Below are positions 4,997-28,270 of a stretch of DNA of 28,270 nucleotides, piece after piece. Positions within the stretch are counted from its first letter, which is position 1. Each line of letters opens with the position of its first letter. The DNA comes from Amoebophrya sp. A120 (taxonomy: Eukaryota > Protista > Dinoflagellata), in contig CAJINV010000032.1 of assembly GCA_905178155.1 (NCBI GenBank), positions 18,110-46,379 on the forward strand. The letters are read 5' to 3'. The position numbers and the translations under genes were made by a program. The notes below the pieces were generated by a model, which was not told the DNA's origin, did not search any database, and saw nothing but the letters and a program-made list of their open reading frames with translations.

Positions 4997-5276
4997 TATC
5001 CTGAGCAAAAACGTCCTCACCCCAGAGTCAAGATGGGAAATCCGCTAGACAAATCAGCCACCTCTGGTTGTTTCGCATGACAAGTTTATCCTCGTAGTGT
5101 AATCCTGTTCAGCTAGTTCCGAAGCATCACAGATCTAGCATATCATGCTGATTCTAGCATTACAAATTCCAAAACAGGATTAAGAAAATGGTTCTCATGG
5201 GGCTCCGCATGAGAAACTTTTTTGGCATACAGATTTGCATGACAACCCTGGTGTGGGGACATTTTTACTCAGGATA
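4997..5276. mobile_element. IR introner/MITE family B, outside CDS
   Basis: TATCCTGAGCAAAAACG...CATTTTTACTCAGGATA; 5-bp DR CCCTT/CCCTT. Confidence 0.92.
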
Positions 5277-5516: not shown

Positions 5517-5775
5517 TATCAACTGTAAAAATGTCTGGGCCTGCAAATTTGTGATGCATGGCAGTGAAAAGAAAGCATACTGTAGTGCGCCGCCAGGCAT
5601 GACAAATTTATCCTTGGCTCCCTGTTGCGTATTCCGCATGACAAACACCGTTTTTGCATGACAGATAAGAGGAGCTCTTGCTGGTCACGCAATACAGAGC
5701 TCCGCGTCATGCCCGACTAGCATGACAAATGCAAACTCCGCATCCTTCCAGACCCAGACACTTTTGCATTTGATA
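5517..5775. mobile_element. IR introner/MITE family A, outside CDS
   Basis: TATCAACTGTAAAAATGTCTGGG...CCCAGACACTTTTGCATTTGATA; DR ACAGG/ACAGG. Confidence 0.92.
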
Positions 5776-5836: not shown

Positions 5837-8800
5837 TCACTTCTTCTTAGCGGCAGGCTTTTTCTTCGCGGCAGCCTTCGCGGCCGCCTTTTCTTCCTTT
5901 TCTGCCTCCTTCTGGGCTTTCTTTTTCGCGGCCGCTGCAGCCTTTTCAACTTTCTCTTGCTCCTTCTGCGTATCAAATGCAAAAGTGTCTGGGTCTGGAA
6001 ACTTGTGTTGCTGATACTTGCATTGCAAACTTGCTGCGTGTACGGCATAACAGCATGAGAAATTTCCCTCGGCATTCCTTGGGGATTTCATTCGTATTTA
6101 GCATTACAAACTACCATATCCAGCACGACAAAAAAACTGGCCGATGGCATTCATGCATTACAGATCTTGTTGTCCTTGAAGTCCTGCATCACAAACCCAG
6201 ACCCGGACACATTTGCAATTCATACTGTGCCTTCTTGTCCTCGTCAGCCTTCGCCTTAGCGGCTTTAGCGGCGGCTTTTATCAAAGTGAAAAATCCCCCC
6301 TCCCCATACTAAAAAGGGATACTCCTGAAGATTTGTGATGGTGATTTGTAACCACAAATCGTCTCTGCATTGCACGAAGGCAACCCCAGCGACTCCGCTG
6401 CGTTGCGCAGGCAATTTGTGACGGTGTATCGCCTACAGAGGATGTGCCTGCCTTGCTAGGTGCCTACACCAAAACGCCCCTCCTCAGGCTGCGCACCTGC
6501 CTGCAGTCCTCTACTGCAACACAAAGCCGATTTGTGTACACAAATCCCGCATCACAGATTTCCATTTTGATCTGAGGCGGGGGGATTTTTCATTTTGATA
6601 GCTTTCGCGGCGGCTTTCTTCACCTTCTGGTCGTCTTTGTATGCCTGTTATCCTGAGTAAAAACGTACCCACACCAGAGTCAGGATGGGGAATCTGCTAG
6701 ACAAATCAGCCAGCTTTGGTTGTTTGGCATGACAAGTTTGTCCGCGTAGTGTAGTGCTGTTTGAGCTAGTGGAGCAGCATTACAGATCTAGCATCTCGTG
6801 CTGATTGGAGCATGACAAATTTCAAAACCGCATTAGAAAATGCTTCTCATGGGGCTCCGCATGAGAAACATTTTAAGCATGCAGAGTTGCATGACAACTA
6901 TGGCGTGGGTACGTTTTTACTCAGGATACCTGTACGGACAGACCAGCCGCAGTGGCAGCCTCCTTGATCTTATCAACTGCAAAAATATCTGGGTCTGGAT
7001 GAATGCCAGACTTGTCATGCAGGTTGTCCATGACCCATGAGGTTGAGGTCTCGGTCTGGTATGTAGGACATAGCATGACAGATTCTGTGAGAGTTCTATC
7101 ATGCCTATCCTGCATGAGAAACTCCCTCTCGATTAGGTCAAAAGTGGACAGCTTTTGGTAATCATGCAACACAGATTTTTACATGTTTCAGATTTAGCAT
7201 GACAAGTTGTTTTGTTCCAGACCCAGACATTTTTGCATTTGATAGATCTCCGCATTTTTCGCCGCCGCCTTTTCCCGCCTCTCCAGCACCTCTGGCTCGA
7301 AATTTTCCAGGGCCCGCTTCCACTTCGTCCCATTCCATCCTGGATCGAACAGTTCGTAGCCGTCGGCCAGCATCCGGGCAATCCAGTCCTTCTCGGCCTT
7401 ACCAATGTACAGGTGATAGCGTGTTCGACCACCAAAGGTTGCTGTGCTGTACTTTCTGAGTTCACAGAACCCTATGCAGTGCAAATATCTTCGATCTGGG
7501 TTTGGATGGATGCAGATGTCTGTCATTCGCATCCTCCCACAAGGCCTAGGCCATGCAAAGGGCCTTTAGCAATACAAACTTTCCAATAGGCGTGGGCCTG
7601 TAGGCCTAAATTCCGGTCGGTTGGTCGGTCGGTTGGTTGGTTTTGGACAGACGACAACTGACCGAACCCGCTCCATTGTGTTTTGTGTTTTTCTGAGATT
7701 CATCTATTATTACTGTTGAAGCTGCCTACCTACCCACCTACCTGGCGTCTTTTCGATTCATTGTAGTACCGTGATCGCACCGATCCACCTACCTACCTAT
7801 CCCTTGCCACCCAGAGACAGCTGCCTACTGGTCACGCCTACCGACCTACCCACCCACATGGTGGGTAGGTGGGGCGAGGGAGCGCGCGCTGCCTATTGGC
7901 CACGCCTACCGACCTACCGACCCACCAGCCTGGTGGGTGGGTGGGGCGAGGCAGGGCGCGCTGCCTATTGGCCACACCTACCGACCTACCCACCCACCTC
8001 GCTGGTGGGTGGGTGGGGCGAGGGAGCGTGCGCTGCGTATTGGCCACGCCTACCGACCTACCCACCCACCAGCCTGGTGGATGGGTGCGGCGAGCAAACG
8101 CTGTCTATTGGCCACGCCCACCGACCTACCCACCCACCTCGCTGGTGGGTGGGTGGGGCGAGCGTGCGCTGCCCCTTGGCTACGCCTACCGACCTACCCA
8201 CCCACGGGCCTGGTGGGCGGGTGGGGCGAGCGTGCGCTGCCTATTGACCACGCCTACCGACCTACCCGCCCACCTCGCAGGTGGGTGGGTGGGGTGAGCG
8301 TGTGTTGCCTCTTGGCCACGCCTACCGACCTACCCACCCACCTGCCTGGTGGGTGGGTGGAGCGAGCGCGCGCTGCCTATTGGCCGGGCTGCCGAGCGAC
8401 CTACCCACCCACCAGGCAGGTGGGGGTGTGGGGCGAGCGTGCGCTGCCTACTGGCCACGCCTACCGACCTACCCACCCACCTGCCTGGTGGGGGGGGGCG
8501 GGGCGAGCGTGCGTTGCCTATTGGCTACGCCTACCGACCCACCCACCCAGCTGCCAAGCGGGGGGGGGCGAGGGAGCGTGTGTTGGCTATTGGCCACGCC
8601 TACCGACCTACCAGCCCACCTGCCAAGCGGGGGGGGAGGGGGTGGGGCGAGCGTGCGTCGCCTATGGCCCAATCTATTAGCAGGGGGCTTGCAAGCAAGG
8701 GACTCGCGAAGCCAAGGGGTTGCGCAAAAAGCCCCCGCTCGGCTTGACCAAGCGGGGGCTGATCCAAATTTTGCGCGAATTTGTCTCTATTTCCCAAGTG

Positions 8801-11800
8801 TGTTTTGCTTGGGTTGAGGAAACGCAGGCCGTGGCTGGAGAAAAGTGCAGCATTGGAGCCCCGACCTCTTTCTATCTCACAGGCGCAAACTCTCACGAGG
8901 CCCCCTGGAGCTCCGATTGCGTCCACGCAGCACAGATCTGTGTCGGCAGCGAGCTGCGCGCAACACTGCTTTGTGTTGCGCGCAACACAGATGCGCGCCC
9001 ACGCAGCACAGATTTGTGTCTCCGGCGAGCTGCGCGCAACACAGATGTGCGCGCAACACGCAGCACAGATTTGCGCGCAACGCCGATTTGTGCTGCGCGC
9101 ACGCAGCGGAGATTTGTGTCTGCGGCGAGCTGCGCGCAGCACAGATCTATGGCGCGCGCAACACAGATTGGCGTCCACGCAACACAGATTTGCGTCTGTG
9201 TTGCGTGGACACATCGAACTCTCCTTCTGCCGAGACCTTTCTGCCGCCCTGGCGGAAGTGCCTACTGGGCGGCGATAGGATGCGGCGCTACCAGCCTCGC
9301 AGGGGCGGGCTGCAGCCCCGGTAGGGAGGCAGGTGCGCCGCGCGCCCCGACCACCCCCCTATCGTGTTTCGCCCTCCTTGCCGTTGCGGTTGTCTTCTAA
9401 ATCCGAAACCGATATGCGTTTTTCCATAAGTCGGAAATTCGGTCAATTGTCGTCTGTCCAAAACCAACCAACCGACCGACCAACCGACCGGAATTTAGGC
9501 CTACAGGCCCACGCCTACTCAAACTTTCAGAAGGATATTTGTCAACACGACGGCCTTAGCCACATAAAACGAATCTCCTTCTTCGGAGACAAGAAATGCA
9601 CTGCTTGTGCAATGCACTACTTACTTGTGCTTGTCTCCGTGCATGAGAAATTTTTATCTGATCCGAAATGCGCATCACAAGTTAACAAGTACTGCATCCT
9701 CCAAGAGGTGGACCCAAGTCGATATATTTGCAATGCATAAGCAGGAAACACAGCTGGTGCGGAGACTGTGGCTCGGCATGCCCTATATACCCGATTTTGA
9801 ACGCTTTGAGCTGCTCTAGGCGTCTTCCCCATCTCGAATAGTGAATAATGGTCACGAAGAACGCCGTTTTCGTGCAGGCAGACCGCATCGTCTTGGTGGT
9901 AACACCGTCGCGGTGTGTATCTACAAAGGTAAACGCACGAAGTCCGGACTTGGTATACCGCGCTGACGACATATACGCCTCTGCGATTTGGTTCAACAAA
10001 AACGTTGGACCTCGGCCAGTCTCCCAAATTTGTTTGAAGAGACTGGCCGCAGTGCGAAAAAGGTCATCTTTATGGAAAGAAAAAAGTTTGTCACAGTCAC
10101 TAACTTGCAGGTTTTGCATTACAAATTTTTTTAGCATCACAAGTTTTCCTTGTATTGCAGAAACACTAGGGAAAACCCCTATGAAGCTTGGCTGTCATGC
10201 ATTTTTACGCATGACAGCCAGTTTTGTATTGCAAAAATGCGCATGAGTAATCGTGACGAACTTTTTTTGTTTGATAATCTTTGCGGCTCTCGGGTTGCCC
10301 TTTCGCGAACTTTTCCGGGTTCTTCAGGATCACCTCGAGCGCAAACGACAAGCCGAAGTTTTTGTCGTCGCCGAAGAATCGTAGAAGCAACTTATCCTGA
10401 GTAAAAACGTCCCCGCCCCAGAGTTGTAATGCAGATTTGCAAAGACGGGAAGACTTGTAATGCGCCAGCCCATGAGAGCCATTTCGAATCTTGTTTTGGA
10501 ATTTGTGATACTGTAAACAGGATGCCAGGATGGATTTCTGATGCGGTTGTCCTTGATGCTAACCCGCATTACAGTACAGCGAAAAACTTGTCATGCGTGA
10601 CTCCCAAAACTTCTGGATCTGTGTTGCAGAATTCCCAACTTGAGTCTGGGGCGGGGACGCTTTTACACAGGATACAACTCAACTGACGTCCATGCGGTTT
10701 TAGTTGCCCCCAGAGACTTTGGTTTCCCGAAGTGCTGTATGACAGTGCACAACACCCCCTCCCCCTCCTTTGTCATGCAAAAACCTACATCCAGCTGCTA
10801 TTATCTTGGGGCCCCGTGTGCATGACAAATTCCGGAAATGATCCAAACAGTACTACTTACTTACACTCGGCGCATGAAGAACTTGTCATGCACGGGGTCC
10901 ACCAGCTGATGTGCTGGTGTTTGTAATGCTGTTGATGCCATAGTACAAATGAGGGGGAGGGGGAGTTGTGCAGTCTCATATGCATTTCGGCCCATTCCAG
11001 ATCCTTCTCTTCCAGCGGCGTGTTCTTGTATAGGTGATGTCTGGATTCGGACTTACTCATCCCTGGGAGGCACTTGGTACCCATGAACGCCATCCGCGTC
11101 AGGTGTCTGAGCCATGCAAGTGCTTCGTACAGCGTCTTGGACTCTTCGATCTTTTCCATCATGTACACGCTCCGGAAGTCCAATTCGGTGTCGAACTTAG
11201 ACTATCCACTGCAAATATAATCGATCTGGGTCTGGACACTTCTCTTGCTCATCCCTGCATGACAGACTGGCTGCTTCGATACGGCATAACAGCATGAGAA
11301 GTTCTTGTTTTCCTCAGCATGATTTCTTGCGGATGTCAGTCGTCTTTAGCATCTTACAAACTGTGATGCATAAAGTAGGGCTGAGTCGTACTTTATGCAT
11401 CACAAATTTTTCTGTCGTTGAAGTCCAAATTTTTTTTTATCTCATCACACGTCCTTGAAGTCCAGCATCACAAATCCAGATCGATATTTGCAGTGCATAT
11501 ACACCCGTACCGCGTTTGAACCGGCGGACAAAAAAACTTATCCTGTGCAAAAGTATCGCACTCGTAGTAATCGCAATCATGCATTACAAATCTCACTCCT
11601 AACCTAAATCCGCAGTACAAATTCGATTGTTCATGCTGAGGGGATTTGTCATGCGATCTATACTAGTACGATGCTTTTGCATTTCATAAAGCTTCTGCTT
11701 CCCCAACTCTGGTATCAACTGCAAATATGTCTGGGTCTTCTGGAAATTTGTGTTGCTGACACTCGCATCAGAGGGTAGAAGCCGCTTGTATACGGAATAG

Positions 11801-14800
11801 CACCATCAGAAGTTGTTTGGAAAGGCTTGTACTTGCTGATTCATTCGGAAAATAACGCATGACAAGCTTCAATCCAGTATGTACGACAAAAAAACTGGCC
11901 CATCGCATTCATGCATCACAGATCTTCTTGTCCTTCAATTCTCGCATCACAAGTTATCCAGACCCAGATGAGATATTTGCAATGCATATCTGGGTGCATT
12001 GGGTCCTCGTAGTCGTCAACCCGAGCGATGTATCCTGTGCAAAAGTGTCGTACTTGAATTGCAATCATGCATTACAAATTTTTTTTGAAGGGTAAATCAG
12101 CATTACAAATTTTATTTCTCATGCTGAGGTAATTTGTATATGCATTTCTACGAGTACGATAATTTTGCAGTTCATACATTGCCGCGTGGGCGTCCATCAG
12201 CGCATTTCTCACGTTATCACACAGAAAAATAAGCAGGCAGGTCATAAAAGTTGTCATGCAAAAATAATTCAGACAAAAAAATCTGTATTGCAACTCCTAA
12301 ACAGCATGCGGCGGCGCCGCCCATGAAAGATTTTTCTGTGCATTCATTTTGGCATGACAAATTATATGCCCTGCTAGCTTTTTTCTCTGGGATACACGCG
12401 GACCGTAATCGCGGGCGAACAGCGTCACGTAGACCTTCTCGATGCTGGAAATCACGGGGTTCTCGGTGTGGTTGTCACACGCATCCCGCATGAGCTTCGC
12501 ATCGTTCGCGCAAGCGTCGCAGAGGAGAAGCTCGCTCGCCGCCAGGAAGTGTATCCAAGAAAAAAAGTGTGAAGTGTAAGTCTTTTGGGAAAACTGCATC
12601 ACAAGTTTGTCTGCCATGACAGGAAAAATTTGCTATGCGCAGATAGGAAGGGAAAAGAACTAGGAAGGGAGCCGATCATGCACGTCGAGCATGACAAGTG
12701 TAACTGTCTTGCATTTTCTGCATCACAGATTTACACTTACACAGTTTTTTTCTTGCATAAAGTGGAAAGTCGGTTTATTGCCCACGGCACTCGGTGCCTC
12801 GTCTTCTGGAGTCCTTTCGACACCAGCACCCGACCAAAACTCTGCCACTTCGTTTCCTACAGTGTCGAGTAGCGATTTGGTACAGTCCTCTTTCTCGCAG
12901 AGGCAGCACCGGTATGCATTGCAAAGATGTCTGGGTCCTCTGGAAGAATGCTGGTTTACGAAGATGCTAAAGTAAAAATCTCGGAGTGACACCAAAATCT
13001 GCATTGCAGGGGAAACACAACAAGCTGCTCACGAAGAAAGGTTTCTAGATATGGTAAAACGACCCGAGGTCAAGCCCGTGATGCTGTGCCCTGCAAACCA
13101 GACCTTCGGAGTCGTCCATTCAGCGCAAGACAAATTATTATACCTGCATCGTTCCAGATCTCCCAGACACTCTTGCAATTGATAGCCGTCCGATGTGCCA
13201 CTCCCGTTCGCTATGCTTGACCCACATCTTGCGGAACTTTTTCGACGTGTGACGTTTTTTCGGCACGACGTCTGGATTGTTTTTTTATCAAATGCAAAAA
13301 TGTCTGGGTCTGGAAGGTTGCAACTTGTGATGCTGTCTTTGGAAGGTAAAAAAAAACTGTATTGCATGACCAGCAAGAGGAGTTCCGTTTGTGCTACGCG
13401 AAGTGGGCGTTTCTCATGCGGAATACGCATCAGAAGGCCCTTTAAAAATCTGTGATTCTAGGTCATGCATTGATACGATACAATGACCGGCTATGCAAAA
13501 TATGCATGACAAACCTGGCAGTCTTCCAGGTCCAGACATTTTTGCACTTGATACCTTGCCTCCGCCATTGTCCTATGCATTGCAAAAGTATCGCATTCGT
13601 ATGTATGCATTACAAATTTCCTCAGCATGAGAAATGAAATTTGTAATCCGGATTTGCCTTAAGAAAAGGATTTGTAATGCAAGACTTGCATTTATACGAG
13701 TACGATGCTTTTGCACAGGATATGTCCGAGTCGTGCTCGTTCACGTACTCCTCCTATGGATTGCAAATATGTCTGGGTCTGGAAGAACCAAACTTGTGAT
13801 GCTGAATTTGGATGCTAAAAAAATCTGTATTGCATGAGCAGCAAGAGGAGTCAAATTTGGCTACGCGGAGAGGGCATTTGTCATGGAGGATGCGCATCGA
13901 TAGACGCTCAAAAAATCTGTGATGCTATGGCATGCATCGGAGACATCATGGATCATGGAAAATGTGCATGACAAACTTCTACTTTCCAGACCCAGACATT
14001 TTTGCATTCGATACCTCCTCATGTTGTCCCTCTGGCGGATTGTTCTTCTTTTTCCCCTATCAAATGCAAAAATGTCTGGGTCTGGAAACTCGTGGTGCAA
14101 GGAAGGGAATACTGGTGAAAACACTGTAATGCGCTGCCAAGCAAGACAAGTTTTTTCCATGGTTCTGAGTTGCGTACTCCGCATGAGAAACTGCGTTCGA
14201 GCATGACAGGCAAGACGAGCTCTTCGCGGCCATGCAACACAGAGTTCAGAGTCATGCCAGACAAGCATGACAAATCTCGCAATTTTCAAAACCCAGACAT
14301 TTTTGCATTTGATATCGCCCGCGGCTTCGGCTTGGCTCTCGCCTTTGCCGCGGCTTTTGCAGCAACCGCAATCGGTGGAGGAGGTGCTGGCACAGGTGGG
14401 AGTAGAAGGCTGTTCTTCTTGTTCGCTTTTTTGTCCGCACGGTTCTCGTTGTGGTCCGAGTGCATTATTCTACAGAAAAGTAGAAGTACACCGATAGATT
14501 GACCAGAAAAAAATTGTTGAATCTGTCATGGCGCTGTTTATGTTTTCTCGTCACAATAAAACGAGGCTCTATGAAGAAGAAGATCATGCTGATCATCCGC
14601 ATGAAAGTCGATAATTCTCTTTCAGCACGCTACACAAAAAGCTAAATCAGCAAGACAAATTTCTTTTTTTTCTGGCACCAGCATGGGTGTACAACATTTG
14701 TGTTTGCATGGGATAATATTATCCGTCTTCATCTCGTCTCCCTCGACTGAGTGTTTTTTGTTTTTCCTCGCTTGTTTTTTGTTCTCCTTCTTTTCCTTTT

Positions 14801-17800
14801 TTGACTTTTTGTCCTTTTTTTCTTTCTTCTTTTTGCCGTTGTCTTCACTTTCGTCGGCGTGGTTGTTCTCCTGGAGGAAACTCATGTTTTTGTCAAGAAC
14901 AACATCTGCGGGTGGTGAATCTTTACGCACAGCATTCTGGTCGAGGTCAAAGTCCTGGTTGTTCAGTAGCTGTCCGCCACTCGGTTCGTCCTCCTGAAAA
15001 AACACCACTGGCGTGTCCGAGAAGGGTTTATCGAACGCGTTGGGGTTCTTCTTCCTCATCTTCTCTAAGTGCTTGTCCCGCCTAGAATGGATGTACGCGT
15101 TCCAATATCCACTGCAAAAGTAATATCGCACTCGTACCAATTGTGCTTTTATGCATTACAAATCTTTTTCTTAAGTGAAATTCGCAATACAAATTGAATT
15201 TGACGTAATGCTAAGGCATCAATTTGTTGTAATGCATTTATACGAGTAGGAGTACGATACTTTTGCAATCTTCATATCAAAGTATCCGGGTCGAGCTTGA
15301 GCTCCTGGCTGTCGTTGTCCTCTTCATTCTTTTCGATTTCGGATAATTCGTATCAAATGTAAAAATGTCTGGGTCTGGAAGATTCTGACACTTGTCATGC
15401 ACGTTTTGCATGAGCCACGATGTCTGTGATGCATACCCTAGCAATACAGATTTTCTGAGGGCTTCTTGATGCCTATTCCGCATGACAAATGCCTTCTCAG
15501 CGTAGCAAAAATTGCATTCCCTTTGCTACTCATGCAATACAGATTTTTTTGGAATCCAAATGCAGCATCACAAGTTGCATTCTTCCAGACCCAAACATTT
15601 TTGATTTGATAATTCGTCGTCACCGAAGTCGAGATCCAGCTCCAGGTAGTTGTCATCGACAGGTGGTTCTTTCGCTTTTTTCGCGTTGACAAACTTGGCC
15701 TGGTTTTATGAAATGCAAAAGCATCGTACTAGTAGTAATCGCAGTACAAATTTGCTCAGCATGACAAATGGAATTTCTCATGCTGATTGACCTTGAAAAA
15801 AAGATTTGTCATGCATAAATGCGATTACTACGAGTACGATACTTTATTTGCACAGGATAGGTTTTCCCCGGCCCGATTCGAAGATTTCGTCTCCCGACTG
15901 CGGCCACGGTCGGGCTCATCCAGCTCCGCCTTCCGAAGTCTCGCTTCCTCCTCCTGTATGCAGTGCAAAGAAAAGTATCGTACTCGTATAAATGCATTAC
16001 AAATTTCCTCAGCATGAGAAATAAAATTTGTAATGCTGATCTACGTGAAGAAAGAGATTTGTAATGCATGCTTGCAATACGAATACGATACTTTTGCACA
16101 GGATATCCTGTTCTTCCTTCTGTTTTTCGCAAAATTTCTCCACCAGCTGGCCGAGCTTTTTCCTCATTTTTTTCGGCGGGAGATCCTGCATTTCCACGGT
16201 CACCAGCTCGGGATCACGCTGCTCGTACTGCACGAATAGGTGTGGCTTGGACTCGGGCGCAGTGTCGAGATTCTTTTCCCAGGAGACAACCCAGTACTGA
16301 GCAGGTGCTACATCGCCGTCCTCGTTTATGGAAGTGCACAAGAACTCCCTCTTCCCCGCATTTGTGTAAGCATGAACAGCAAGACAAACACCAGCACACG
16401 TGGATGCTGGTGGGCATGACAAGTTCATGCTCTCAGTGTAGTAGTACTGTTCTTTGGGCTATTTCAAAATTTGTGATGCGTAATTAGTGACACAAGGGAA
16501 CAACTGGAGTTGCGATTCATTTGCATGAGAAATGAGAACGAGGGGGAGTAGTTGTGCACTGTCATATCGCCGTCTTCGACGGGTTCGACCTCGACCTTCG
16601 CGTTTGATTTTTTCGCCGTGGGCTTCAAGTCATTGTCGACGAAATATCGTAAGGAAAAATCCCCCCTCCCCATATCGAAAAGGAACGCCGCAGAGAATTT
16701 GTGATGCTGATTTGTGACCACAAATCGCGTTTGTCTTGCAAGAAAGCAACGACATGGGCTCCGCCGCATTATGCAGGCGGTTTGTAATGCTGTTACAACT
16801 CCTACAGCATAAACGTTCCTCATGCCAAGTGCCTAGGCCAAAACCTTTCTGCATGGGCATGATATGGGCCTGCAGTGCTATCCAGCAAGACAGCTCTGAT
16901 TTGTGTACACAAATCCAGCATCAGAAGTTTCGTTTTGATATGGGGAGGGGGCATTTTTCCTTTTGATACGAAACACCACCGTCGCTCATCTTCCCCAGGA
17001 AAAGGCGTCTGCGTCCCGGCCCCCGGCTGGAACGCGAAGTCAAAGTCTATCCTGTGTAAAAACCTTCCCAGCACGACCCCAGAGTTGTCATGCAAATGCG
17101 CAATGACAGGAATCGATTTGGTGTGCGCATTTCCATGAGAGGCATGATTTCCAGTCGTGTTTTGGCATTTGTAATGGGAAACTTGTCATGCAGAACTTCC
17201 AAAACTTGGGGATTTGTGTTGCAGACTTCCCATCATGACTATGGTGTGGGGACGTTTTTACATAGGGTAAAGTCCTCGACGTCAACGTCGTCCTCGTCAG
17301 ACGACGACGAAGAATATCAAATGTAAAAATGTCTGGGTCTGGAAACTTGTGATGCTGGGGGGCGTCTCATGATGAGGCCACAAGTGCTGGCTCAGCATGA
17401 CAAGTTTCTGAGCTTCTAGGTGTTGCCTATTCTGCATGACAAACTGCATCTCTGCATCACAGAAAAATGGAGCTCTTGGGTAACGTGCATGACAGATTTA
17501 AGAGTCATACCAGACAAGCATGACAAACATGCATTCTTCCAGACCCAGACATTTTTACATTTCATAAAGAACAAACGCTCCACGAATTGCGATATGCACT
17601 GCAAATATGTCTGGGTCACTGGATGAGTGGAAGATTTGTCATGCGCATTTTGCATGACTCCTGATCGATCTGTGATGTATGCGCTGGCAACATGACAGGT
17701 TTCATTGTGAGGCCTCCTAATGCAGCCTAAGCCTACACAACATGAAAAGTGCCCCCTCCACGTAAGTAGCAGCTAGTGGACTCCTCTTGCTGCTCATGCA

Positions 17801-20800
17801 ATACAGATTTTTTTTAGAATCGCAAGACAGCATCAAAAGTTGCATTCTTCCAGACCCAGATCGATATTTGCACTCGATATGCGATAGCGGCGGGAGACTT
17901 TGACCCAAGGATTTTCTTCCTGGTGCTTCCTATGAATTGCAAAAGTATCGTACTAGTACGAATTACATATACAAATTTCCTCAGCATGAGAAATGGAATA
18001 TGTAATGCTGATTTCCCTCAAGGAAAAGATTTGTAATGCATAACTGCAATTACAACTACGAGTGCGATACAACTTTTGCACTGGATACTTCCATAGCGCC
18101 TCGTCACCGTAAAGGTCCTTTACGGTCCATTCTTCGTCGTTTCTGGGTTTTATCTCGCCCGTGCTATCCCACGAAACAACTGTTTCACTGTGATGGTTTT
18201 GCAAGATCTGCATCACAAGTTTGCTACACATGACACAGAAAATTTGTCATGCGCGTTTTCCAAGGGAAAACACGCTGAAAGATCCGTTGTGTTGCAGGTG
18301 TAGCAAGACAAACGCATTGGTGTTTCGCTCTCTGCATCACAGATTCACAATGAAGCAGTTTTTTCTTGCGATACGTTCTCTCGTCGATGTAGTGTTGGAA
18401 CACAGGCGTTGCGGTATTCTGAGTAAAAACGTCCCCACCCTCGAGTTGTCATGCGAAATTTGCACGCCAAAAAAGTTAGTCATGCGGAGCTGCATGCTGA
18501 GAGCCATTTTCTAGTTGTGTTTTGGAATTTGTCATGCTAGAAGCAGCATGATGCGCTAGATCTGTGATGCTGCTGAATTACCTAAACAGGACTACTCTAC
18601 CGGGACAAACTTGTCATGCGAAACAGCCATAGCTGGTTGATTTGTCTAGCAGATGTCCCATCTTGACTCTGGTATGCGGACACTTTTACTCAGGATATGC
18701 GCTACTATCAACCGGGACCTGCTGCTGCTGCTGCGGCGCGTCTGGGTTGTTGTAGCAGTACAGGTTCATGTTAAAGTCTGCCGCAGAAACGGCTCCGAAC
18801 TCATAATATGGTATCAAATGCAAAAATGTCTGGGTCTGGAAGAATGCAAGTTTGTCATGCAGCTTTTCCATGACCATCCACGAGGTCTGGAATGCAGGAC
18901 CTAGCATGACAGATTCATCTGTGTGATCTCTTTCGTGCCAATTGTGCATGAGAAACTCCCTGCCGACTTGGTCAAAAGTCGACAGCTTTTGGTAATGATG
19001 CAACACAGATTTTTGCATGATTCAGATTTAGCATGACAAGCTGCATTCAATTCTTCCAGACCCAGATATTTTTGCAGTGGATATTTGGCTGCTGGATACC
19101 AAAGTTACCGTCCGCCTGCGAAAGCGCTCCGTAGGTATACTGGTCATTCTGCATCAAACTTGACCCAGCTGCGCTCTCCATACCAGGAAAAACCGCTGGC
19201 GTTTCCGAGTAGTTCGCAAAGATCTCAGTGTTGTCGCGATTGTAGAAGTCGCTCGCATATCCTGTGCAAAAGTATCGCACTCGTAACGCAATCATGCATT
19301 TACAAATCTTTTCCTGAAAGCAAGTCACCTTTACACATATTATTTCTCATGCTGAGGAAATTTGTAAAATGCATTTATACGATTACGAGTACGATACTTT
19401 TGCACAGGATATCGCAATCGTCAGGCCACCTTTCAGCAGGTGAAATTGTCCCCCAGAAGAACCAAATGCGGTTCCAGACTGGAAATCAAGCGCAGAGCTG
19501 GTGCCTGGTTCTGCCACGCCACCCTCTTGGCCTGGGAAGGGGAGAACGCTTTCTCCTCCTACAGGTTCCGGCTGTTGATTCGATGAAGTTGTACTGGGAA
19601 CATTAAAATGTTGATAGTTAAATGAGTATCAAATGTAAAAATGTCTGGGTCTGGAAGAATGGAAGGCTTGTCATGCTTGTCTGGCATGACCCATGATGCT
19701 TGTAATGCATGACCCAGCATCACAGATTTTTGGAAAGCTTCCTGATGCCATTTCCGCATGACAAATGCCCTCCTCGCGTAGCACACATGTGGCTCCTCTT
19801 GCTGGTCATGCAGTACACATTTTTTTAGAGTCCAAAGTTAGCATCACAAGTTCCAACTTTCCAGACTCAGACATTTTTACATTTGATAAGGAGTTGAAAA
19901 CGTTCCGTTCGCCATGTTGATCCTCGTCCTGGGGTATGGATTGCAAATATGTCTGGGTCTGGAAACTTGTGATGCTGGCTGGCGTATCATGAGGAGGCCA
20001 CAAGTACTGGCTTAGCATGACAAGTTTCTGAGCTTCTAGGTGTTCCCTATATTGCATGACAAACTGCGTCTCTGCATGACAGAAAAGTGGCGCTCTTGGG
20101 TAACGTGCATGACAGATTTGAGAGTCATGCCAGACAAGCATGACAAACATGCACTCTTCCAGACCCAGACATTTTTACATTTGATATGGGGCAACAGAAA
20201 TTCGCGCGCAGCAGTCGCCGACGTTGAACTACTGCTTGCAGCCGCAAATGCAGGAGCAGGAGCCGACGATGAGCTACTACTTGCAGCCGCAAAGGCCCTT
20301 TTCTGCCCGCCGGTACTAGAGGTCATGATCTCAGCAGCCGGTAGAAGTTTTTCTCGATCTGAGTGTAGTTGAGCCTCCTTGTTGTCTCGTGGTGCTTTGC
20401 TCATCTTCCCAGATGAAGCTCCAGCTTCAACAGCAGCAACCGCTGTCGTGGCTGTTGGACGACTAGAAGTCTATCACAAGAAAAAAGTGCTACAGTTACA
20501 CATCTGTTGTAAGTTCAGCAACACAAATTTTCTCTGTGTGGCAGAGAAAATTTGCAATGCAGAGATCCTATGGGAAAACACGTACGAAATGAAGTTTGGA
20601 TGCATTTATTGCATGACAAAGGGTGTCTGTCTTGCGGCTCCTGCAACACAATGTGTAACTGTAGCATTTTTTTCTTGCGATAAAGTCGCCGCGGTTTTTC
20701 GGGGTCGACCACGCCCGCGTTTTGCGGCTGGAGGAGCACTTATTTCTTCATCTTGCGGTCGTGCCTCAATGCGATCAGGATTGTTCTTTTCCGACAGCGG

Positions 20801-23800
20801 CACACCTGTCACAGGGTCGAGCTGTGGTGGAGCAGCAGCGTCCAACGGCTTCGAGGCCGGTCCTTGTTGCGAAGGTTTTATTTGTCCCTCCGCTGCAGCT
20901 GCCGAGCTGCTTTTCGCATCCTGGGACGTCGATGAGATGATTTTCATGTGGGACGATCTACTCACGACCTCCTTGTCCGCGTGGTCAACATCCGCTAACA
21001 CACTAACGCCGGTGCCAACGCCGTTGTCCGGGTTTTCTTCCGTGAGAGGCGGCTCAGCAGCTAAGGTAGTTGGATGTTCCTTTGCAGCTTCTTTCCCGGC
21101 GGCGAATGCTGGTCCTTGTCCATCAGAAGTTTGTTCTGGCCACTTGGCGTTCTTGCCGGAAACTTGCTGTCGTGCACTGCTCAGTTGTCCATGATCTCGA
21201 AGGTCGTCGTCTTCGGACTTGATGTCGAGCTGTTTGTGCATGTTCGCATCTTGTTCCGGGCGCTTGACATTGATGTCCTTGTTGCAACTCCCAGTGAAGA
21301 TTTCACTGATATTATTCTGAACGCCTTTCTTGGCCATCGTCTTGAGCTGGGGAGCAGCGGCATCCAACGGCTTCGCGGCCGGTCCTTGTATCAAATGCAA
21401 AAATGTCTGGGTCTGGAAGGATGCAACTTGTAATGCTAGCTTTGGACTCTACACAAAATCTGTCTTGCATGACCAGCAAGAGGAGTTCAGTTTGTGCTCC
21501 GCGGGGAGGGCATTTGTCATGCGGAATAGGCATCAGGAGGGTCGCTAAAAATCTGTGATGCTAGATCATGCATTACAGACATCCTGAGTCATGCAAAATA
21601 TGCATGACAAACTCCTGCATGCGTCCAGACCCAGATATTTTTGCATTTGATACCTTGTAGTTGCGCAGGTTTTATTTGTACCTCCACTGCAGCTGCCGAG
21701 CTGCTTTTCGCATCCTGGGAAGATTTTTGGATGATCTTCATGTCCGACGATCTACTCACGACCTTGTCCGCCTGGTCAACATCCGCTAACACATCAACGC
21801 GAGTGCCAACGCCGTTGTCCGTTTTTTCTTCCGTAAGAGGCGGCTCAGCAGCTAAGGTAGTTGGATGTTCATTTCCAGCTTCTTTCCCGGCGGCGGATGC
21901 TGGTGCTTGTGCGTCAGAAGTTTGCTGTTGCCACTTGGCGTTCTTGCCGGAAACCTGCTGTCGTGCTGCACTCAGTTGTCCCTGATCTCCAAGGTCGTCG
22001 CCTTCGGACTTGACGAGCTGTTTGTGCATGGTCGCATCTTCCTATGACAGTGCACAACTCCCCCTCCCCCTCATTTGTGTAGCATGAACAGCAATACTGT
22101 AAGCATCAGCAAGAGTGCCGGCTTTGCATGACAAATTCACACTCGAGTGTAGTGCTATTTCGGCTGCCAGAACTTGCCAAGCTAACAGTGCCAAGAGGCA
22201 AAGGGGGGACTGGGTATTTTGCATGACAAATCAGGGGGAGGGGGGGTTGTGCAGTGTCATACTTTCCCGGCGGCGGATGCTGGTCCTTGTGCGTCAGAAG
22301 TATGTTCTTGCCACTTGGCGTTGCCAGAAGCCTGCTGTCGTGCACTGCTCAGCTGTCCATGATCTCCAAGGTCCTCGTCTTCGGACTTGATGTCGAGCTG
22401 TTTATGCATGTTCGCATCTTGTTCCGGGCACTTCACGTTGATGTTGTCCTTTTTGCAATCATTCCCAGTGAAGCTTTTTTCCCCGGAAAAAGAACCACTC
22501 TGACCGCCTTTCTTGACCGTCGTCTTGGCTTTATTCGGTTTAGCCTTGTCGTGCTTGTTCTGCTGTAGCTTAGGAAGATCGGGCTGTTGTTTTTCTTGTG
22601 CATCGTCAACAGTAGTGTTTATTTCCTTGCAGTTCTTCAGAAGACTGCTAGAGCTACCTGGAACCACGTGCGACGCCCCGGCCGCGGGTTTGGCCTGCGG
22701 GTTTTTGTTTCTCTGGTGCTCACCGTCGGCAGATTTTTCCTTCTGCCCCTTGCTGAGTTTCGCGTTGCAGCTCATTGGCGAGATGTCGCTCACACTATCC
22801 TGCAGCAGGGTCATATGGGAGTGTCAGGATTGAAATCGTCAAAGTTGAAATAGTTTGTCATGCAGGAAATGGAGCGCAAAGACTGCCTCTATTGCAGAGG
22901 ACGCAAGGGAGGCACATTGTAGTGCTGGTAAGGGTCGACAGAGGGAAGCCCCATTGCCCTGAACAGCATGACAAACTGGCTTCCGGTACGGACAAAATTT
23001 GTCATGCGCCGACTAGAAACTGCGGGTCCAATTGGTATCCATTTTATGCATGACAAATCATTTCAACTTTGTCGATTTCAAACCTGACGCTTCCATAGGT
23101 CACTGGTTGAGCTTCAGCAGTCGCCACTTGTGGCCCAACAGTCCTGCCTCCTTTGCTGGATGCGCCCTTTGCTTTTTGCTTTTTCATCTTTGTAGTTGTG
23201 GGCTGCTCTTGTCCAGCAATTTTTCCAGCATCACGTTTGTTGTTGCTCCCCCCGACAATATGAGCTGGTTTTATCGTGGGAAAAAAATGTCTCAGTGCCA
23301 ACTTGTAATGCGCAAGAACCTCCTTGACAAGACAATTGCTTGCCATGCTCAACGTGCAAAAAAGCCGGCTTTCGCTGCTTGTGTTTTCCCTTTTATGTGG
23401 TCTGACGCATCACAGATTTTCAACATCTGTGTCATTCTGAGCAAATAATTTGTATTGCTGAGTCTGCAATCAAGGATCCAAAACTTTGGGACTGAGACAG
23501 ATTTTTCTTGCGATAAGTGCGGCCACGCAACTACTGCTGCTGTTTCTTTTCGCAGGAGGGAGACCAAGCTCACTGTCATCCCGACCACGCTTCGTGGCGC
23601 GCCCATCGGGTACGGGTACTTCGTGTCTGGACGTCGTGTCTTTGGAGCTCGCTGCTACTCCTATCAGGGGCGCAGCTTCATCTGATAACTCTCGATCACC
23701 GACAGGCCATTTCGATTGTTCTTTCTTGCCGGCGCCGTCGTGTGCCTTTTGCGGCGCACCTCCACGCACATTTGCTTTCGTTGCAGCAGGAGTTGCCGGC

Positions 23801-26419: not shown

Positions 26420-28270
26420 GGTGGCCCGCGGGCTTGCGGGAAAACAGCGAAAAACGAAGAAGGAAAGCGCGCGCCCGCCCACCTCTTCCGCCTGGCTTAC
26501 TCTGGTAAGAAAGCCGGGCCAACGAATACGAGCCAGAAAGCTCGGCCAGACGACACACACGGGGCGGGGTTCCTGTTTTTTTTCCGGCAGTCTTCTCTGG
26601 GGCGCGCGGTCGCCGCGCGCCCCGAAGGAGCTCGCCCGAAACGAGACGCGCTAGCCCATCGCGAAGCGCGCGGGAAAACAGCGAAAAGCGAAGAAGGGAA
26701 GCGCGCGCCGGCCCACCTCTACCGCCTGGCTACACTTACTCTGGTAAGGGAGCCGTGCCAGCGAAGGAATGCGAGCCAGAAAGGTCGGCCAGACGACCCA
26801 CGCGGGGCGGGGTTCTGATTTTTTTTCGGCAGTTTTCTTTGGGGCGAGCGGTCGCCGCGCGCCCCAAAGGAGCTCTTCCGCAACGAAATGCGCCAGCCCG
26901 TCGCGAAGTGCGCGGGAAAACAACGAAAAACGAAGAAGGAAAGCGCGCGCCCGCCCAACTCTTCCGCCTGGCTTACTCTGGTAAGAAAGCCGGGCCAACG
27001 AATGCGGGCCAGAAAGCTCGGCCAGACGACGCACACGGGGCGGGGTTCCGGTTTTTTTTCCGGCAGTCTTCCTCGGGGCGCGCGGTCGCCGCGCGCCCCG
27101 AGGGAGCTCTGAGAAAACGAAATGCGCCAGCCTATCACAAAGTGCGCGGGAAAACAACGAAAAGCGAAGAAGGAACACGCGCGCCCGCCCACCTCTTCCG
27201 CCTGGCTTACTCTGGTAAGGGAGCCGGGCCAACGAATGCGGCCGGGCCAGAAAGCTCGGCCAGACGGCGCACGCGGGGCGGGGTTCCGGTTTTTTTTCCG
27301 GCAGTCTTCTTTGGGGCGCGCGGTCGCCGCGCGCCCCGAAGGAGCTCTCCCACAGCGAAATGCGCCGGCCTATCGCGAACCGTGCGGGAAAACAACGAAA
27401 AACGAAGAAGGAAAGCGCGCGCCCGCCCACCTCTTCCGCCTGGCTTACTCTGATAAGGGAGCCGGGCCAACGAATGCGAACCAGAAAGCTCGGCCAGACG
27501 CCGCACACGGGGCGGGGCTCCGTTTTTTCTTCCGGCAGTCTTCTTTGGGGCGCGCGGTCGCCGCGCGCCCCGAAGGAGCTCTGAGCCAACCAAACGCGCC
27601 AGGCCATCGCGAAGTGCGCGGGAAAACAACGAAAAACGAAGAAGGAAAGCGCGCGCCCGCCCACCTCTTCCGCCTGGCTTACTCTGGTAAGGGAGCCGGG
27701 CTAACGAATGCGAGCCAGAAAGCTCGGCCAGACGCCGCACACGGGGCGGGGCTCCGGTTTTTTTCCCGGCCACCTTCTTTGGGGCGCGCGGTCGCCGCGC
27801 GCCCCGAAGGAACTCTCCCGCAACGAAATGCGCCAGCCCATCGCGAAGCGCGCGGAAAAACAGCGAAAGGCGAAGAAGGAAAGCGCGCGCCCGCCCACCT
27901 CTTCCGCCTGGCTTACTCTGGTAGGGGAGCCGGGCAAACGAATGCGAGCCAGAAAGTTCGACCAGACGACGCACACGGGGCGGGGTTCCGTTTTTTCTCC
28001 CATCCGGCAGTCTTCTTTGGGGCGCGCGGTCGCCGCGCGCCCCGAAGGAGCTCTGAGCCAACGAAATGCGCCAGCCCGTCGCGAAGTGCGCGGGGAAACA
28101 GCGAAAAACGAAGAAGGAAAGCGCGCGCCCGTCCACCTCTTCCGCCTGGCTTACTCTGGTAAGGGAGCCGGGCCAGCGAATGCGAGCGAGCCAGAAAGCG
28201 CGGCCAGACGCCGCACAAGGGTCGGGGTTCCGGTTTTTTTTCCGGCCGTCTTCTTTGGGGCGCGTGGTCA
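26420..28270. repeat. GC-rich tandem repeat, ~235-bp unit, ~8 copies, running off the right edge
   Basis: GGGAAAACARCGAAAAACGAAGAAGGAAAGCGCGCG recurs near 26437, 26671, 26913, 27147, 27385, 27619, 27853 and 28092. Confidence 0.97.

Follow-up and report, generated by a model that had tools for sequence, protein, structure and literature searches.

Introduction

Introner elements of Amoebophrya sp. A120 have been described by Farhat et al. 2021 (PMC7789003). According to the available text of that report, their direct repeats measure 3-5 nt at the exon-intron borders, and their splice sites are variable relative to the hairpin, at a distance of 1-5 nt from the repeat. The same report puts the share of Amoebophrya introns without canonical ends above 60% and poses the way in which they are removed as an open question; U2, U4, U5, U6 and almost every spliceosomal protein were reported from A120, with U1 undetected. 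In the published table of top non-canonical pairs, the donor is N-T in 9/9 pairs of A120 and TT in 9/9 pairs of A25. The main text of the report, in its available part, holds no table of element orientation, and its four uses of 'orientation' concern genes.

Introners that serve as introns either way are known from Aureococcus anophagefferens and Polarella glacialis (Roy et al. preprint 10.1101/2020.10.14.339549; Huff 2016). As far as the available text of these sources goes, they are non-autonomous DNA transposons with target duplications, carry or co-opt GT, GC or GA together with AG, and require particular targets. The introns of Fritillaria borealis are described, in the available part of the source (PMC11282704), as transposon-derived, with inverted repeats and target duplications; AG-AC and AG-AT ends dominate, the target is TAC, and removal is ascribed to a modified U2 spliceosome. 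Euglenid nonconventional introns have terminal inverted repeats, direct repeats and non-canonical ends, carry a CAG/CTG motif at +3/-8, and leave as circles (PMC12501133; PMC11282704). Ciliate IES, including MITE-derived ones in Blepharisma, are given in the accessible literature as sequences of transposon origin with TA-starting ends, which interrupt coding regions and are removed exactly, from the DNA of the somatic nucleus. Ciliates are alveolates, as is Amoebophrya.

Here we analysed a stretch of 28,270 nt from the marine parasite Amoebophrya sp. A120 (the window). The inserts in it are the published A120 introner elements, an intron class already known; by a protein identity of 100%, the strain is the same. 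In common with the published elements, as far as these are set out in the available text (PMC7789003), are the repeat of TAT, seven bases and three A, the direct repeats at the borders, the non-canonical ends and the hairpin potential, and the elements here likewise form repeated families. What the window adds to the published system is a cut register that appears fixed, lying 1 nt ahead of the element and 4 nt beyond it, and conserved ends.

Results

Within the window, 50 inverted-repeat elements with TAT...ATA ends and 5-bp target duplications were found, of which 48 interrupt one minus-strand gene (Table 1). There are seven multi-copy families. The observed end pattern is TAT-N7-AAA...TTT-N7-ATA: TAT stands at 47/48 5' ends and, mirrored, at 48/48 opposite ends, as expected of the symmetric removal signals that an earlier note on this DNA had proposed, and repeat positions 11-13 are A in 42-47 of the 48 elements. 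A perfect 5-bp direct repeat flanks 25/48. At fetched loci outside the window, where the detection score partly rewarded the repeat, a 5-bp repeat was seen at 263 of 354 elements and a 6-bp repeat at none; 283 of 341 unique elements at other loci fall into the window families.

The earlier note had singled out seven copies of three families as internal reverse complements of one another. The boundaries of the leading pair were confirmed (6649-6928, 280 nt; 18415-18697, 283 nt; both TAT...ATA elements). To compare cores, 30 nt of inverted repeat were trimmed off each end before alignment. On opposite strands the identity was 0.80 for 6649 and 18415 (family B), 0.76 for 11539 and 13574 (family F), 0.78 for 6971 and 26016, and 0.76 for 18812 and 26016 (family A), against same-strand values of 0.52, 0.51, 0.53 and 0.54, respectively; 6971 and 18812 lie in the same orientation (identity 0.78). 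The observation thus holds, at 76-80% against about 52%. The cores are not palindromes (identity to their own reverse complements 0.45-0.67), so orientation is a real property of an element. No pairwise edge was inconsistent in orientation in family A (0/39), F (0/36) or B (0/8). In a second assembly, among 119 family-assigned elements of 144 that were strand-called, the two orientations were near even (A 14:23, B 6:5, E 7:6, F 14:13).

When the element plus 5 nt was removed at all 50 sites, one minus-strand frame of 2317 codons opened across 48 of them. Removal on the plus strand or at other offsets gave at most 405 aa, except for a frame-equivalent offset of 2, and random frame offsets gave a median of 412 aa and a maximum of 1186 aa in 2000 trials. 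Leaving in any single element truncated the frame (48/48). Elements were detected by their ends, and the frame closes without any additional intron. The earlier claim that copies facing both ways restore the frame is borne out by the 48 removals together and not by its leading pair, for which the removal units, 285 and 288 nt, are both multiples of three and therefore uninformative. For this pair the evidence of removal lies instead in the five in-frame stops inside each of 6649 and 18415 and in the absence of both elements from public proteins.

The public proteins P0001 and P0002/P0003, source-labelled Amoebophrya sp. A120, derive from gene models made by BLAT alignment of assembled transcripts. 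They span 34 of the 48 junctions, including six of the seven named copies; the other junctions are 12 upstream, 26016 among them, and two downstream, and a search for protein records covering the first 1011 residues found none. Elements of both orientations are missing from these proteins, and 33 of the 34 junctions are exact, with no change of length. The reading frame together with the transcript-based gene models supports the removal of elements of both orientations, as the earlier note had supposed. Pfam gave no family for P0001 or P0002, the annotated parts of the host, and Rfam no match across the window.

Read along the transcript, register 4 denotes cuts lying 1 nt ahead of the element and 4 nt beyond it. 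With register 4 at every junction, no residue mismatched P0001 and P0002, while registers 0, 1, 2, 3 and 5 gave 14, 13, 9, 3 and 3 mismatches. Register 4 fits 14/14 informative junctions, that is, those at which the duplication copies differ, and the mirror register was rejected at 11/11 discriminating junctions (p 0.001 if orientation were random). On the public gene models of one gene on one strand, the cut appears to be fixed to the direction of transcription in both element orientations. Registers 3 and 5 are each excluded at only three junctions, and 20 of the 34 covered junctions are uninformative or anomalous for register. In families A and B, the -1 copies that are informative (13286, 18415) still permit the mirror register; only family G, whose cores are 64% alike, rejects it in both orientations. 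A codon-likelihood test of register made without annotation gave p 0.18 over 90 sites, with a calibration that failed in the window. In a stop test of 38 elements, registers 0 to 5 met 2, 2, 0, 0, 0 and 1 stops.

We then compared the splice signals with an antisense control. An exact GT-AG intron is possible at 3/48 elements in sense (6649, 21389 and 13755) and at 3/48 in antisense; in the second assembly the figures are 2 and 6 of 144. For 6649 the GT-AG reading is available through its target duplication, and 18415 has none. A frame-preserving GT-AG within 12 nt exists at 13/48 in sense and 14/48 in antisense. At the fitted register the donors are GT 14, AT 15, TT 14 and CT 5, and the acceptors comprise 14 different dinucleotides among 48, with AG at five. 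Strand bias was absent at all 16 repeat positions tested (144 elements). No fixed branch-point candidate was found in 47 elements: GCAT-N-ACAA within 60 nt of the 3' end occurs in 23/47 in sense and 29/47 in antisense. The polar cryptic signals for each orientation against which the earlier note's idea was to be checked were not seen in these comparisons. The ends of families B and F have a U-tract and then CAG; pairing an in-repeat GT with this CAG would add five codons, which are absent at the covered junctions.

The two arms of an element differ at repeat positions 1-3 in 1/144 comparisons and at positions 11-13 in 5/144, against 39/240 for the duplication copies; at positions 4-8 they mismatch in 91/240. 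Conservation of positions 1-3 and 11-13 relative to the duplication copies suggests that both ends have been under selection since insertion, the outer TAT/ATA being far more conserved than the flanks.

Folding predictions pair the termini in all seven named copies, with z between -2.8 and -10.2 (25 shuffles per copy), and the predicted terminal pairing probability exceeds 0.5 in 36/47 elements. No enrichment of G-U over A-C mismatches on the transcribed strand was found in the window (33 against 46, p 0.18) or in the second assembly (74 against 67, p 0.61), and folding energy did not differ between sense and antisense (p 0.18, 47 elements). Hairpin-based processing, as the earlier note suggested, is possible on the predicted folds; the strand-specific pairing that would speak for it did not appear in these two comparisons.

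Table 1. Host coding sequence and inserts in the window; further copies are given by their starts, and P0001 and P0002 are public proteins.
Feature	Position	Orientation or strand	Remarks
Host coding sequence	5837..26300	-	49 exons, 6855 nt, 2284 aa plus stop from first ATG; 48 introner elements
Family B	6649..6928	+1	perfect 5-bp duplication; predicted intron 6645-6929 on minus
Family B	18415..18697	-1	4/5 duplication; predicted intron 18411-18698, AT...GC ends
Family B	10393..10674	-1	missing from P0001
Family B	24221..24499	-1	junction outside public proteins
Family B	4997..5276	+1	lies 3' of stop codon
Family F	11539..11688	+1	P0001 permits register 3-5
Family F, further copies	12031, 15106, 19258	+1	
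Family F	13574..13722	-1	missing from P0001
Family F, further copies	15707, 15957, 17931, 25038, 25630	-1	
Family F	15707..15859	-1	sole junction with two additional residues in public protein
Family A	6971..7244	+1	missing from P0001
Family A, further copies	15351, 17593, 18812, 19627	+1	
Family A	18812..19083	+1	P0002 permits register 4-5
Family A	26016..26283	-1	first intron; placed by reading frame only, outside public proteins
Family A, further copies	13286, 13755, 21389, 23898, 24611	-1	
Family A	13286..13553	-1	register 0-4 permitted, 5 excluded
Family A	21389..21652	-1	exon paralogue near 20860 is an empty site
Family G	10738..10980	opposite to 16327 and 22043	register 2-5 permitted
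Family G	16327..16566	opposite to 10738	register 2-5 permitted
Old element outside families	14466..14715		1/5 of duplication left; P0001 fits register 4 only
Long introner	7473..9739		outer part 322 nt; nested 1937-nt inverted-repeat element at 7584-9520

Discussion

The inserts are short inverted-repeat transposon copies, and we consider it rather probable that they are spliced from pre-mRNA by a relaxed spliceosome in either orientation. Such a spliceosome would read identical end motifs whichever way a copy faces. The premise of the earlier note, that orientation independence is at odds with spliceosomal splicing, was too strong: owing to the inverted repeat, the RNA motifs at the 5' and 3' ends do not change when a copy is turned round, and two-way introners have been published. 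Going by the public gene models, cuts placed 1 nt ahead of the element and 4 nt past it would take out exactly one duplication's worth besides the element, so that the intron would start with N-U-A-U-(C/G) and end with a U-tract...A-U-A-NNNN. In a donor-like site whose +1 base is free, the +2 U may come from the first T of the repeat; the inner stem, at about positions 9-30 of the repeat, may draw the ends together, and the 3' cut would be placed by its distance from the terminal AUA and not by an AG.

The GT/GC donor and AG acceptor of a U2 spliceosomal intron are not what these elements show. They also depart from the Aureococcus and Polarella introners in that an exact GT-AG is possible at only 3/48 and the target seems free, and from the Fritillaria borealis introns in having no dominant dinucleotide pair and free 5-bp targets. 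A stronger proposal, which we hold tentatively and are inclined to doubt, is a splicing code without a dinucleotide rule, in which the machine reads TAT...ATA plus an A/U tract and removes the insert scarlessly at -1/+4 from any target in either orientation. If that were true, each insertion would be harmless to the protein, by way of an undescribed U1-independent ruler mechanism.

Though the system is known, the apparently fixed, orientation-independent register is a useful mechanistic handle on non-canonical splicing in A120. Target duplications with mismatches become natural markers for where the cut falls, and the +2 U and the terminal AUA are singled out as testable bases. A fixed register would also account for a single gene bearing 48 insertions, with exons down to 15 nt.

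Alternatively, the RNA might be cut by a stem-guided nuclease and rejoined by a ligase independently of the spliceosome, a route that has been put forward for euglenid nonconventional introns, with a staggered -1/+4 cut at the terminal helix. Such a pathway would account for the transcript-polar register equally well, and it agrees with the predicted pairing of the termini, with the lack of a conserved acceptor dinucleotide and with the undetected U1. Euglenid cuts are likewise offset from the terminal stem, with the longer offset on the 3' side as in A120 (PMC12501133; PMC11282704); the likeness is in the way of working only, between unrelated lineages and with a stem that is predicted here, and A120 has TAT/ATA at -1/+4 in place of the euglenid motif. 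Against it are the absent excess of G-U over A-C on the sense strand, a helix often broken near the very ends (positions 4-8), and a +2 U in the top donors of both strains that looks spliceosomal. We know of no stem-guided splicing nuclease and ligase in this lineage, and on this evidence we regard the pathway as unlikely.

The single register might also be an artefact of transcript assembly or alignment, the true cuts being heterogeneous within the duplication and both orientations still spliced. The variable sites, 1-5 nt from the repeat, in the available text of PMC7789003 would suit this, as would the many uninformative or anomalous junctions and the deviating one at 15707. However, where the duplication copies differ it is the transcript that sets the placement, and only register 4 is free of mismatches; moreover, an aligner rule of left-most or right-most placement would yield register 0 or 5. 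An artefact seems improbable.

DNA-level excision in transcribed nuclei, in the manner of ciliate IES, was the other route raised by the earlier note. The transposon anatomy, the TA-starting ends and the exact loss of the element with one duplication are what it would produce, spliced-looking transcripts are compatible with it, and the kinship of ciliates, noted above, adds to its appeal. But under a symmetric reaction, independent of direction, one would expect the register to go with the element or with neither strand, and at all 11 discriminating junctions it follows the transcript. A register that follows the transcript makes removal from RNA likelier than excision from DNA, so the evidence favours the former and disfavours the latter. 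In addition, the elements are present in two assemblies, and to our knowledge no germline-soma split exists in Amoebophrya. We therefore find DNA excision very improbable. Canonical sites particular to each orientation, whether cryptic or co-opted in the way of the Aureococcus and Polarella introners, could draw on the three exact GT-AG elements, the 13/48 frame-preserving ones and the U-tract-CAG of families B and F, but are scarcely credible, being largely refuted by an antisense control that gives equal numbers (3 and 14 of 48) and by protein length unchanged at 33/34 junctions, where an internal CAG would have added residues, and the 144 elements show strand bias at 0/16 repeat positions.

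As for their origin, the elements resemble MITE-like non-autonomous DNA transposons with terminal inverted repeats, and insertion may be the work of a cut-and-paste transposase acting in trans. Among seven longer repeat-bounded elements of the fetched loci, no transposase with matching ends was found; they hold a single long frame (L064, 415 aa), for which Pfam returned no family. Target duplication is shown by one empty site: the exon paralogue has the five bases once, and they stand twice at 21389. The long introner, with its nested element, is lost as a single unit in P0001.

Elements and reading frame

Fifty elements that start with TAT-N7-AAA and end with TTT-N7-ATA were recognized in the window, all of 146-324 nt in length with a single exception of 2267 nt. 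The five bases preceding an element are repeated after it, without a mismatch in 25 of the 48 copies that lie in the coding region. It can be seen that an exon paralogue near 20860 carries only once the five bases found on both sides of element 21389; the repeat is therefore a target duplication. When the elements were removed together with five bases each, a single minus-strand frame of 2317 aa was obtained, running from 26399 to 5840 across 48 elements and closing without further introns. The plus strand or frame-shifting offsets gave at most 405 aa, and 2000 trials with random frame offsets gave a median of 412 aa and a maximum of 1186 aa. Keeping any single element truncated the frame (48/48). 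These results agree with the observation in an earlier note that the copies named there lie in one coding sequence and restore its frame.

Single-exon searches returned Amoebophrya sp. A120 proteins P0001 (906 aa) and P0002/P0003 (314/315 aa) at 100% identity; the public A120 gene models were built on BLAT-aligned assembled transcripts. The public proteins span 34 junctions. Among these, element families A, B, F and G occur in both orientations, all but one of the seven copies named in the earlier note are present, and length was unchanged at 33. The deviation at 15707 would stem from cutting at another position or from an error of assembly. Searches of protein records for the first 1011 residues of the host frame found nothing, and this part is absent from the public annotation.

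Features of the window and of one locus of the second assembly
Feature	Position	Remarks
GC-rich tandem arrays, 35-nt and 234-nt units	1-895 and 26436-28269	flank the element region
Weak extra candidate element	2550	left out of the set of 50
Two elements	4997-5276 and 5517-5775	perfect duplications; 3' of the stop codon, in untranslated or intergenic region
Host frame, minus strand	5837-26300	split by public annotation into two partial proteins with ten-residue overlap; no Pfam match
Introner with nested element	7473-9739	still taken out whole, as a 2272-nt unit
Nested element	7584-9520	1937 nt; 8-bp direct repeats, ~80-nt inverted ends, internal 68-nt tandem array
Junction	15707-15859	two extra residues in public protein although duplication is perfect
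Internal exon duplication	21091-21344, 21882-22040, 22262-22527	element 22043-22261 at its breakpoint
Family F copies	25038-25197 and 25630-25787	copied along with flanking exon, 88% over 236 nt
Family D and family A elements	25270-25529 (D) and 26016-26283 (A)	nearly paralogous exon positions; identical outer repeat variant at one end
Introner-like stretch, locus L064	476-2934	2459 nt; same ends as introners, perfect 5-bp duplication; 415-aa frame inside without Pfam match

Orientation

Families and orientations were called from cores with the repeats trimmed, and the calls were mutually consistent. The trimmed cores confirmed that the pairs for which opposite orientation had been claimed (B 6649/18415, F 11539/13574, and A 6971 and 18812 versus 26016) are indeed opposed. 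In the coding region the ratios of one orientation to the other were A 5:6, F 4:6, B 1:3, G 1:2 and D 4:0 (14058, 17315, 19935 and 25270). Having been duplicated with their exon flanks, F copies 25038 and 25630 count as one insertion event.

A pattern scan led to loci of a second assembly that hold the same families and, with flanks taken for 80 of at least 132 stretches, gave at least 354 elements in 79 loci (at least 341 unique), at least 144 of them with a callable host strand and at least 119 of these assigned to a family. Among the matches listed the ratios were A 14:23, B 6:5, C 0:1, D 12:4, E 7:6, F 14:13, G 0:3 and H 8:3, and no single family's ratio was significant. An orientation bias of family D, unlike the other families, is possible. 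The presence and removal of the elements in both orientations is a real and strong observation.

Mechanism of removal

Insertion would be driven by a transposase, and removal would take place at the RNA level, somewhat more probably than otherwise by a relaxed spliceosome. The intron would begin with a donor-like N-U-A-U-(C/G), which we take to resemble the GUAUG donor, and the 3' cut may be placed in a ruler-like manner. A branch-point search gave no motif at a fixed position.

The ends of the elements are strongly conserved. At repeat positions 1-3 the two arms differ in 1/144 comparisons and at positions 11-13 in 5/144, as compared with 39/240 for the duplication copies and 91/240 for repeat positions 4-8; in copies with a decayed duplication (n=23) positions 1-3 differ in 0/69. 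A stem-guided, non-spliceosomal route is a less likely explanation, though one to be taken seriously. The hairpin-based processing proposed earlier gains from the pairing of the termini in predicted folds and loses from G-U-compatible mismatches, which showed no enrichment on the RNA strand in the window or the second assembly; recognition of the ends by sequence is therefore as plausible as by pairing.

The cut register, k, is the number of upstream duplication bases retained in the exon, readable where the two copies differ. At 14 informative junctions, k of 0, 1, 2, 3, 4 and 5 was compatible with 2, 3, 6, 11, 14 and 11, respectively, and k 4 at all junctions left 0 residue mismatches against P0001 and P0002. 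This fit places the intron start 1 base before TAT and its end 4 bases after ATA in transcript direction, from which we infer a -1/+4 cut for one gene, on public models, not reads. A heterogeneous register is improbable; only three junctions exclude each register adjoining k 4. Two annotation-free tests were weak: in-frame stops for registers 0-5 numbered 2, 2, 0, 0, 0 and 1 (38 elements), and a codon register test, which failed calibration, gave p 0.18. In a published table of top non-canonical pairs, an N-T donor appears in 9/9 A120 rows and TT in 9/9 A25 rows, which fits U at +2, subject to the aligner's placement of sliding junctions.

DNA-level excision, also suggested earlier, is highly improbable, since the register follows transcript direction and the ends are conserved: k 4 is preferred over its mirror, k 1, at every one of the 11 junctions able to tell the two apart (p 0.001 under random orientation). 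In families A and B, the reverse copies that are informative also allow k 1. Cryptic canonical sites are just as improbable, exact GT-AG ends being possible for 3/48 elements on the transcribed strand and 3/48 on the opposite strand in the window, and for 2 versus 6 of 144 among the second-assembly matches listed. Canonical sites particular to each orientation are therefore lacking, and separate cryptic polar signals found no support. Among the 144 second-assembly elements listed, 5' and mirrored 3' ends showed no difference at any of 16 repeat positions. The symmetry of the end signals, which the earlier note had supposed, follows from the inverted repeat and yields the same RNA ends whichever the orientation.

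Relation to published introners

The end motif is that published for A120 introner elements in the part of PMC7789003 covered, and the window elements belong to this class; figures 3 and S14-S25 of that paper might already contain the modal cut offset. Introners active in either orientation are described for Polarella and Aureococcus in the covered part of 10.1101/2020.10.14.339549, and the A120 elements resemble them in being two-way. Further prior art, likewise covered in part, comprises PMC12130899, PMC9860276, PMC10228655, PMC13326754, PMC11282704 and PMC12501133, and, through other papers that cite them, Huff 2016 and Henriet 2019. The literature covered, which took in few subscription papers and is weak evidence on this point, held no statement on A120 introner orientation or a fixed register. 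The A120 introner class and two-way introners in other organisms were already known; the transcript-polar register and the end conservation are added here, and together they make the open splicing question testable. As for elements 25270 and 26016, their likeness could reflect exchange via the shared repeat or repeated targeting.
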